NCBI GenBank assembly: GCA_951406725.2 | Contig: OX597835.1 | Location: 43,214,001-43,278,000, forward strand | Direction: 5' to 3' | DNA: 64,000 nt | Source: Octopus vulgaris | Lineage: Eukaryota | In this document: in pieces, positions 17,961-56,565 of the stretch | Layout: each line of letters begins with the position of its first letter | Numbering within the stretch: the first letter of the stretch is position 1 | Translations under genes and position numbers: made by a program | The notes under the pieces: generated by a model | The model's input: the letters and a program-made list of their open reading frames with translations, nothing else | Told to the model about the DNA's origin: nothing | Databases searched by the model: none

Positions 17961-18349
17961 TGCATTAATCGATGCGCTCGCTCGCGCGTGCGTGCATTGG
18001 TAGAATGAATTAGAGCGTGAGACAAAACGTCTCGCGGTGCTTGTTGTGGCTCTCGTTCAAACCCTAACGGAGTCGTCCTTGCCTTTCTTTCATTCGGGGG
18101 TGGGGGCCATAAATGAAATAGCAACCCAGTTCTGGACGAACTCCCCTTTCCCCCAGAGCCGTCACATTCTGCATTCTGAACACTTCATTGGTTCGAGACT
18201 GAGGAGGGATAACAGAGTTCGTTGGATATGTCGGATTGTAACTAAACGAACGCCTAAAGCAATTAGTGAAAGCATCGTACACGCTACCCGATCATCCTTG
18301 ATTGCGGGTGATATCCGTAACGTGTGTGTGTGTGTATAATTATATATAT

Positions 18350-18751
18350 ACTCTCTTTTTTCTCTTTTACTTGTTTCAGTCATTTGACTGCGGCCATGCT
18401 GGAGCACCGCCTTTAGTCGAGCAAATCGACCCCGGGACTTATTCTTTTTGTAAGCCCAGTACTTATTCTATCGGTCTCTTTTGCCGAACCGCTAAGTGAC
18501 GGTGACGTAAACACACCAGCATCGGTTGTCAGGCAATGCTAGGGGGGACAAACACAGACACACAAACACACACACACATACATATATATATATACATATA
18601 TACAACAGGCTTCTTTCAGTTTCCGTCTGCCAAATCCACTCACAAGGCATTGGTCGGCCCGGGGCTATAGCAGAAGACACTTGCCCAAGATGGCACGCAG
18701 TGGGACTGAACCCGGAACCATGTGGTTGGTTAGCACACAGCCACTCCTGCG

Positions 18752-18753
<2 letters not shown>
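18350..18753 (-). mobile_element. SINE family A, full length
   Basis: Near-identical to 225-623. Confidence 0.85.
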
Positions 18754-18794
<41 letters not shown>

Positions 18795-18918
18795 TCAACA
18801 ATATTAAGGAATGACCTTGATAGGCCATTCGACTCACCAGAAAGAGCAGCTAAACTCAAACCGCTAAATAGTTGTAATTCTGAAACCAAAGGAGAAATAA
18901 AAACATTTATCCTTATCA

Positions 18919-19012
18919 TCTTTGGACTATGCATAGTTTCGACACTTTGGTAAACCAATTCAATTAAATTAAATTAAATTTGTTTACATCTGGCCTGTCT
19001 CGTCAGCAAAGA
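18919..19012 (-). ncRNA. Type I hammerhead ribozyme, canonical core, extended stem II
   Basis: Reverse strand TCTTTG-CTGACGA-GACA..GTAAAC..GTTTAC..TGTC-GAAA-CTATGCATAGTC-CAAAGA; perfect 6-bp stem I; 12-nt palindrome ACTATGCATAGT; lies in a ~300-bp element (~18793-19095) between TA tracts. Confidence 0.9.
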
Positions 19013-19123
19013 AGCCAAGGAAAATATATATCCACGAGGCGACACCAGCGACGCCTCGAGTCTATATACCCTAAATTTTCAAAATCCATTATATATCTTT
19101 TGCTTTTTTCGTAAACTTTCCCA

Positions 19124-19210
<87 letters not shown>

Positions 19211-19300
19211 GGGAAAGTTTACGAAAAAAACAAAAGACGAAGACAGGTGGTGTACAAAACAAACAGATGTATTAGTATAGCGCTAAGGAATAGAAAAAGT

Positions 19301-19336
19301 CATTTACGTTTCGAGCCTACGCTCTTCTACAGAAAG
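19301..19336 (-). ncRNA. Minimal hammerhead motif with CUGUAGA core, in a ~205-bp element (19207-19411)
   Basis: Reverse strand CTTT-CTGTAGA-A-GAGC-GTAG-GCTC-GAAA-CGTA-AATG; same element at 41066-41275. Confidence 0.65.
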
Positions 19337-19436
19337 GTACACAGAAAAAACAAGGAGAGAAACAAAGAGGGAAAAAAATGTGTGTAGTGGCTAACGATCT
19401 ATCATGGCGTCATATATATATATATATATATATATA

Positions 19437-20090
19437 AGTTTTTACTACCAGTGGCCTAGCGTACAAGAAAATTAGTCAATAGACTATATATTATTCCTGG
19501 TCCAGGAATTAGATGGTAAATGTTTTTGTTTTTCATTTCCTTCGAGAATTTATCCTAATTAGTGGTTTGGACTTTAACTGTTCTTTCTAGCGTAATGGAT
19601 TCCTATGATGGAAGCCTCTTAATGTGTTGTATTTTATATGATTAATATATACTCTATTGACTAATTTTCTTGTACGCTAGGCCACTGGTAGTAAAAACTT
19701 CTATAATTTTTATTACCCTGATATCATTTATTATGTATAATGATTTCTGGTTGGTTCGTTCGAAGTTTTCACCGGCATCCTCTTGTTGCCGGCAAAAATG
19801 ACTGCACTTGCGCAGTGGATTAGAAAAAATTAAAACGTACAAGAAATGAGTTTGGCCTCGTTGTTTGTATATTTAATCTAAGGCGTCCCCGCTGATGAAG
19901 ACTTAGCCTTAGTAAATAATAATTTTTATTTACTAAAATAAGTCAGAAACCATGGTCCGGGAATTTGATAGTAAATGTTTTTGTTTTTCATTCCCTTCGA
20001 GAATTTATCCCTAATTAGTGGTTTGAACTTTAACTGTTCTTTCTAGCATAATGGATTCCTATGATGGAAGCCTCCTAATGTGTTTTAATG
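19437..20090 (+). mobile_element. HHR-containing retrozyme/pLTR-like element: 455-nt unit, partial tandem copy and inverted 5' segment
   Basis: Direct repeat 19498-19628 / 19953-20084; inverted repeat 19437-19490 / 19646-19700; (TA)n on both sides. Confidence 0.85.
19888..19961 (+). ncRNA. Type I hammerhead ribozyme, canonical core
   Basis: CCCG-CTGATGA-A-GACTTA..TTAGTAAATAA..TTATTTACTAA..TAAGTC-A-GAAA-CCATGGTC-CGGG; palindrome ACCATGGT; predicted cut after 19957. Confidence 0.9.
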
Positions 20091-20097
20091 TACACTG

Positions 20098-20155
<58 letters not shown>

Positions 20156-56157: not shown

Positions 56158-56565
56158 TTCTCTAATGAGGTTCTAAAAAGAATCGAAACCAGTCAAGACA
56201 ATTTTGTTTTTTCTGTCCACAGAGATAAAAGGATTTCTTTACCTCTCACAATGAAGTTAAACTTGCATTGTATTACCAACGGTATACGTTATATTTTAAA
56301 ATTATCCAATATTTGCTAACTGAATTATTAAATGATTGGTTGATTAATTAACAACGTAACCAATTAATGTATTGTTATGCTAATGAAACAGGCCATTTTT
56401 GTGAGACCTGGTTTGTAGCCACTATAAATAGCCATAGGTATGAGTGACACTGTGGATAGAAGAACAGAGTACTTGTCCTCTGATGAGATTCCAAACAGTA
56501 ACAAAACCGGTCAAGACGGTTTTACTTTTTCCACACTCGGAGAAATAAAAACATTTATTTACAAT
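56158..56565 (+). mobile_element. Old tandem HHR element: two decayed hammerheads 318 bp apart
   Basis: CTAATGA-GGTTCT-AAAA-AGAATC-GAAA-CCAGTC-AAGAC (56162) and GTCCT-CTGATGA-...-AAAA-CCGGTC-AAGAC (56480); similar downstream flanks. Confidence 0.65.

Follow-up and report, generated by a model that had tools for sequence, protein, structure and literature searches.

How did a hammerhead-bearing tandem repeat in octopus DNA come to have a 5′ boundary within a few nucleotides of its own predicted self-cleavage site? The repeat lies in a 64,000-nucleotide stretch of the Octopus vulgaris genome (contig OX597835.1, positions 43,214,001 to 43,278,000; hereafter, the window). A preliminary description of the locus took this boundary to be the cleavage site itself, left by reverse transcription of a self-cleaved RNA of more than one unit length. 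The window copy is an ordinary, old member of a non-coding hammerhead repeat family scattered through the genome, here called F1, which is an animal retrozyme. We consider it quite probable that this copy was written into a (TA)n tract by a Neptune-type Penelope-like enzyme, the RNA template likely being uncut at the ribozyme site.

Table 1. Features of the F1 insertion and of a neighboring F2 insertion (window coordinates; −1 and +1 flank the predicted cut).
Feature	Coordinates	Strand	Basis or remark
(TA)n, likely target, left end of F1 insertion	19412..19436	.	sequence
Inverted arm of window copy, 66 bp; 3′ end faces outward into (TA)n	19431..19496	-	repeat comparison
Head-to-head junction ATTCCTGG-T-CCAGGAAT	19493..19509	.	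direct reading
TGGTC, positions −5 to −1, upstream of predicted cut	19498..19502	+	repeat comparison
One full non-coding unit in register with predicted cut, 455 nt	19503..19957	+	
Type I hammerhead motif: C3-G8 core, A.A at base of stem II, palindromic stem III	19888..19961	+	motif reading
Partial second round, ending at family site A (about 150-162 nt past predicted cut)	19958..20102	+	
(TA)n, likely target, right end of F1 insertion	20103..20151	.	sequence
Separate F2 insertion with one arm only, which runs to site A and ends within (TA)n	18780..19088	-	sequence comparison
F2 hammerhead motif, canonical core CUGACGA-GAC...GUC-GAAA-CUAUGCAUA-GUC	18921..19010	-	predicted cut between 18925 and 18924

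The direct repeat on which the earlier reading was built is confirmed. Specifically, positions 19498-19555 recur at 19953-20010 with 93% identity, at a spacing of 455 nt that becomes 456 past a 1-nt indel, and the repeat continues to about 20090. TGGTC opens both copies, the last base of the second one being the predicted cleavage nucleotide, C19957. The 5′ boundary of the direct arm is not at the cut, as had been claimed, and lies 5 nt upstream of it. The length of 455 nt holds for the window copy, but the majority unit of 15 full units aligned is 474 nt; the shorter length of this copy reflects two deletions, one of 12 nt that none of the remaining 14 units in the alignment has and one of 11 nt that L002 also has. 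Similarly, an inverted copy does precede the junction, but it spans 66 bp rather than 54 (95% identity to 19640-19705 in reverse complement, which corresponds to roughly 151-214 in family numbering). The junction itself is composed of 4 nt of microhomology from the inverted arm, one unexplained base (C19497), and then the direct arm from −5. An 8-nt fold-back had been noticed at this place; the sequence is there, but on direct reading it is mostly coincidental, with ATTC being the end of the inverted arm and TGG being positions −5 to −3 of the direct arm. The CAGG/CGGG difference between the two rounds was rejected as proof of a mixed template because one CpG change suffices to explain it.

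All six frames of the window F1 unit are full of stops, no match to a reverse transcriptase (RT) or endonuclease was found within the window, and GC content is 0.37 over 18001-20000. A short GC-rich near-palindrome, ACTGCACTTGCGCAGT, lies at 19800-19818 inside the AT-rich unit and takes the form ACTGCGCTTGCGCAGT in many copies; by resemblance, we presume that it might be a promoter element. Elsewhere in the window, positions 19096-19237 form 71-nt arms that are 96% complementary and centered on (TA)n, the non-TA outer parts of which resemble another inverted two-armed insertion. Two more hammerhead-like matches to a loose pattern occur at 56480-56555 (+) and 12261-12228 (-).

The hammerhead of the window copy had been described as intact. 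The motif is indeed present (stem I CCCG 19888-91 / CGGG 19958-61; CUGAUGA 19892-98; stem II GACUUA/UAAGUC; GAAA 19946-49; palindromic CCAUGG-UC; predicted cut after C19957), but it is not fully canonical, with an extra A (19945) between stem II and GAAA that faces a bulged A (19899). This extra A is a family trait, found in 72 of 77 F1 hammerhead spans from 65 loci. Positions 3 and 8 are U·G in 44 of these spans, C-G in 18 and U-A in 11, and stem I covaries (T-A 51, C-G 16, mixed 5), all of these tallies counting copies rather than events. The window copy carries one hammerhead motif, whereas some family loci (L010, L013 and L015) carry two. The F1 stem III palindrome has a predicted self-duplex energy of -11.8 kcal/mol, and in this it resembles hammerheads described as dimers. 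An Rfam scan returned microsatellite matches, with no hammerhead among the matches listed (150 of 152). The accessible portions of the literature searched contain no activity data for U3·G8 hammerheads; U.U at 10.1-11.1 is given as the best-tolerated mismatch in the available part of one study (PMC3088659).

The F1 unit yields 3484 candidate matches in the 2.8-Gb genome, the best 40 of which were scored and, the window itself aside, show 75-92% identity. Two exact F1 30-mers have 124 and 138 matches in the genome and 0 in controls. For the first F1 sample we took loci with the exact 30-mer at unit positions 96-125, a choice independent of the 5′ end. Each sample comprised the first 100 listed pattern matches in contig order, which for this one meant 100 of the 124 matches, at 92 loci. 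Second loci of the same insertion, F1 segments below 87% identity, L316, three L375 duplicates and one of two L404 arms (both at +54), the last by mistake in removing duplicates, were left out.

The insertions are 5′-truncated, with partial tandems and inverted 5′ copies, and have fixed 3′ ends and variable 5′ ends. F1 3′ ends cluster at about 150-162 (site A) and at 243-250 (site B), about 88 nt apart, and (TA)4 or longer occurs within −8 to +30 of 100 of 138 A or B ends, compared with a background of 9%. The sister family F2 has a unit of 466 nt, is identical to F1 at 318 of 433 aligned bases (73%), and uses the same A and B sites. The 92 F1 loci contain 55 head-to-head pairs, of which 41 combine A with B, 1 is AA and 1 is BB. 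When both ends are of A or B class, A+B pairing is seen in 120 of 127 pairs (F1 64/69, F2 56/58). The earlier proposal of Penelope-style inverted ends is supported, as is reverse transcription of an RNA longer than one unit. Rounds within a locus share 34 rare variants versus 2.1 in controls, which indicates one template lineage, and they differ by 7.6% versus 11.1% between loci (42 comparisons). Hints of mixed templates at two loci (L121, p=0.017; L127, p=0.042) were picked after the fact. At L004/L081, the region around the predicted cut is repeated at the 5′ junction as a stack of several short fold-backs. Another related repeat with two arms, the third of its kind, lies at L179 (reverse strand, 121-290) and is 72% similar to F1 positions 29-92.

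Could such arrays have arisen by local duplication and palindrome formation at the DNA level, with no RNA step? A few loci are indeed later duplicates (L315/L316 and L375-378). Nevertheless, hundreds of unlinked loci have in common 3′ ends that are fixed, 5′ ends that vary, flanking (TA)n and the pairing of A with B, and because of this end polarity we regard a DNA-level origin as extremely improbable.

The arrangement of the arms suggests a route in which the enzyme would cut both target strands within (TA)n, and reverse transcription would start inside the RNA, from one break end at A and from the other at B. Each cDNA would stop at a variable point, and both would then be joined head to head through short homologies. 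In the window copy, the right arm would have started at A and run 1.3 units to −5, and the left arm, whose 3′ end is at neither site A nor site B, would have started at a minor site near 214. Alternatively, a cDNA primed once might fold back and copy itself out to a second TA-like site, generating the inverted arm. This route would also yield one A end and one B end, and junction fold-backs are seen in the window copy and in L004. In F1, moreover, the 5′ ends of paired arms are correlated, lying within 10 nt of each other in 12 of 55 pairs versus 4.9 expected (p=0.0016), a closeness that fits fold-back. Against single priming, there are many pairs in which neither arm is contained in the other (L064, 26-165 with 133-243; L066; L093), for which an extra central deletion is therefore needed. 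In addition, paired 5′ ends are uncorrelated in F2 (6 of 43 within 10 nt versus 4.1 expected, p=0.21), and a purified Penelope-like relative extends both strands, according to the available part of that report (PMC11167929). We therefore judge single priming unlikely and retain the route with two starts.

A candidate for the enzyme is present in the same genome, in the form of intact 781-aa RT plus GIY-YIG frames with a cysteine linker, ending in (TA)n. These came from a search with 6136 candidates, the best 150 of which were scored. Copies of this family end in (TA)n at one of two sites that are some 36 nt from each other (4 and 2 of 6 copies). Judged by the linker, these frames presumably belong to the Neptune clade. 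Comparison of F1 with 32 GIY-YIG loci gave nothing better than E 0.008 (38 nt), and pseudo-LTR homology to an autonomous element was not found in these loci; because of this lack of a sequence link, we infer the partner from the insertion footprint. The autonomous family represented by L192-L197 (for example, L192:2245-4587 +) looks young, with many intact 781-aa frames. Some 65 nt from its end is a minimal hammerhead-like motif of the U3-A8 type, and in an array upstream the words TGACGTC and GATTGG recur, with a resemblance to promoter motifs. At least two further RT/GIY-YIG families (L198, L201, L203 and L200) have cysteine linkers and end in (TA)n.

If cut RNA had templated F1, then 5′ ends should pile up at the GUC site, as the preliminary description anticipated. 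A pile-up exactly at the F1 cut is rejected: in the first sample (92 loci, 99 arms), 3 ends fall within −4 to +5 versus 3.2 expected, none starts at +1, and 51 arms cross the predicted cut site. Read-through over all samples amounts to 114 of 213 arms, with ends being those of local alignments, good to a few bases, and arms of one locus not being independent. A post-hoc excess at +2 to +30 (26 ends/2209 arm-nt versus 41/7063 and 2/996) survived an AT covariate in the first sample. A replicate of 61 new loci from a second pattern, at least 9 of which had been seen in earlier biased sets, gave 13/1728 = 0.0075 in the same pre-specified interval versus 0.0078, 0.0090 and 0.0067 (p=0.48). Because this pre-specified replicate is flat, the excess is not claimed, and F1 has no established pile-up of 5′ ends after the predicted cut. 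Pooled F1 ends number 18 at +1 to +14 versus 8 at −13 to 0 (p=0.07). Among first-sample arms with the position 113 allele linked to U3·G8, 17 of 55 end in the interval +2 to +30, a frequency similar to that of the rest (9 of 32). The L315 end at +1 is preceded by AAGTC and so may lie at −3. In the first sample, 5′ ends are also somewhat raised at −45 to −15, along the 3′ side of the extended hairpin of stem II, with the top scan edge at −44; these ends are flat in both replicates.

These counts bear directly on whether the template of the window copy was a self-cleaved RNA of more than unit length, with the 5′ boundary of the copy marking the cut. The boundary is within 5 nt of the predicted cut, a mirror-image fold-back occurs at the same place in L004/L081, and the subfamily of the window copy retains its C3-G8 core together with a covarying stem I pair. 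The pooled F1 rate ratio at +2 to +30 is 1.7, although this value is driven by the post-hoc sample. However, the window copy holds −5 to −1, five nucleotides from before the predicted cut that could not come from an RNA whose 5′ end is at +1, and supplying three untemplated bases that match GTC would be a 1-in-64 event. F1 ends show no pile-up within −4 to +5, and the replicate is flat. Furthermore, 9 of 122 F1 arms reaching +5 end within −5 to +5, so a near hit to the predicted cut is not rare. The claim that the 5′ end of this copy marks a self-cleaved RNA is thus unsupported; we consider it highly unlikely and already largely refuted.

We therefore return to a template that was uncut at the ribozyme in most cases, either a tandem transcript or a circle, two forms that the data do not separate. 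For the window copy, we lean slightly toward an uncleaved tandem read-through transcript, with a re-ligated circle being a tentative second choice. Because its core is altered, F1 is probably cut rarely.

F2, whose predicted core is canonical, behaves differently. In the first F2 sample (78 loci), 24 ends fall in a pre-fixed interval at +3 to +30 versus 6.7 expected, and all covering arms give 33/2285 at +2 to +30 versus 21/6639 downstream and 3/919 just upstream. The replicate comprised 42 loci (39 after duplicates), a subset of the new matches that included L150, L155, L157 and L171 from earlier biased sets, and it gave 17/1204, a rate ratio of 3.4 (p=0.0003); two of its first-round ends fall precisely at +1. 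Restricting each locus to a single arm weakens the replicate result (median p 0.028, worst 0.43), and when −14 to +1 alone serves as the contrast the difference is not significant (p=0.26). When samples are pooled, 32 ends lie at +1 to +14 versus 4 at −13 to 0 (p=1e-5). The pile-up of 5′ ends at the cut that had been predicted from the window copy is therefore found in the sister family, in two samples. No excess occurs in single arms with non-TA flanks (0/406). AT richness was rejected as its cause, since the excess survives an AT covariate and other AT-rich tracts give 15/3555. An alignment artefact was also rejected: flanks printed for ends at +2 to +12 are without upstream GTC context. The flank of the L391 end at +1 is a fold-back. 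Three F2 ends lie at −19, a position that is flat in both replicates.

From this one-sided pile-up, it is likely that a minority of F2 arms were copied from cut RNA. In about 30% of arms, synthesis seems to have run off a 5′ end at the predicted cut, with a loss of 0-30 nt on joining (mean loss 16 nt). It is possible, though we think it somewhat unlikely, that the step at +1 instead reflects a transcription start, or stalling of the enzyme where the hammerhead is folded or has protein bound to it. Most F2 arms do read through (89 of 168 cross the predicted cut), and in the accessible part of the anole element study no RNA reads begin or end at the cut (PMC11167929). But the edge falls on the predicted bond: in the discovery samples the best fit is +1/+2, this edge ranks top of 316 scanned positions both in F2 and in the pooled data, and 0 of 400 null simulations are as strong. 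Moreover, F2 stem I consists only of UUUG/CAAA, the edge recurs one unit upstream, where 6 of 10 arms end at +1 to +30, and it is weaker in the altered-core family (ratio of rate ratios for F2 over F1 2.2, z=2.9). We therefore continue to favor cleavage as the source of the F2 edge.

Together, F1 and F2 may amount to a natural experiment. On this view, F2, with its canonical core, marks the scissile bond with a hard 5′ edge in about 30% of its arms; F1, which has acquired an additional A and in most copies no longer has C3, marks it little or not at all, yet has spread to numbers similar to those of F2. With confidence evenly poised, we propose from these sequence patterns that the genome records germ-line cutting, that cut linear RNA may be a real template beside uncut or circular RNA, that cutting would be dispensable for spread, and that the 5′-end profile could serve as a sequence-only readout of ribozyme activity in vivo. 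The contrast between the two families lends itself to a test, in which dimers of F2 are expected to cleave and variants of F1 to cleave poorly. Should that hold, cut RNA would serve as a real, if minor, template, and spread would not depend on cutting. In the available portions of the literature, the purpose that the hammerhead serves in Penelope-like elements is described as unclear (PMC8557442), and in vitro experiments showed no need for cutting and no RNA termini at that site (PMC11167929). The present analysis contributes a 5′ edge that replicates in F2 and is weak in F1.

The comparisons that follow draw on those parts of the cited papers that were accessible. F1 appears to fit the class of animal non-LTR retrozymes (Cervera and de la Pena 2020, PMC7229834; Li, Clavereau and Pollet 2026), which likewise have a short, non-coding, AT-rich tandem unit, a type I hammerhead with a palindromic helix III suited to dimer cleavage, and Penelope-like elements in the same genome. 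Their units are 150-450 bp (PMC7229834) or 51-972 bp (bioRxiv 10.64898/2026.07.22.740005), with GC below 50%. The mismatch at the base of helix II is U.U in axolotl HHR_Amex2 and A.A in F1. Animal retrozymes form long arrays, whereas F1 insertions are mostly short and either 5′-truncated or two-armed; most F1 copies have U3·G8, unlike animal retrozymes; and the window copy has one ribozyme motif where these elements are defined by two. Accessible parts of these two papers contain no mapping of insertion ends. Likewise, we found no map of retrozyme 5′ ends against the cut in the parts of the open-access literature covered here.

In its mode of insertion, F1 would work like a non-autonomous Penelope-like element. 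Penelope-like insertions (Craig et al. 2021, PMC8557442) show 5′ truncation, partial tandems, an inverted 5′-truncated copy and microsatellite targets, all of which F1 shares, and non-autonomous derivatives such as MRC1 are known. A tail often at one end only is also known in these elements, and is counted here in 120 of 127 F1 and F2 pairs. The A-B gap of F1 is 88 nt, compared with a tail of 30-40 nt in print, and F1 is not an autonomous element, as it has no RT plus GIY-YIG open reading frame. Penelope-like hammerheads (Cervera and de la Pena 2014, PMC4209133) resemble that of F1 in having an extra base after A9, a long helix II, a short helix I and a palindromic helix III, and they include the U3-A8 variant found in 11 of 77 F1 spans. 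In contrast, the A between C11.1 and G12 and the U3·G8 pair (44/77) of F1 were not found among those in the accessible part of that paper.

The closest biochemical parallel is the purified Penelope-like protein of Poseidon PAc (Frangieh et al. 2024, PMC11167929), which cuts and extends both strands of an AT-rich target, uses two internal starts downstream of the hammerhead, and has uncut RNA as its main template. The route proposed here for F1 and F2 is alike in its two internal starts past the hammerhead and in the extension of both strands. The systems differ in that F1 is without an open reading frame and has starts that are 88 nt apart and TA-like rather than AC-rich. Finally, whereas the Poseidon PAc study reports no reads at the cut (PMC11167929), F2 appears to carry a genomic sign of cut templates.
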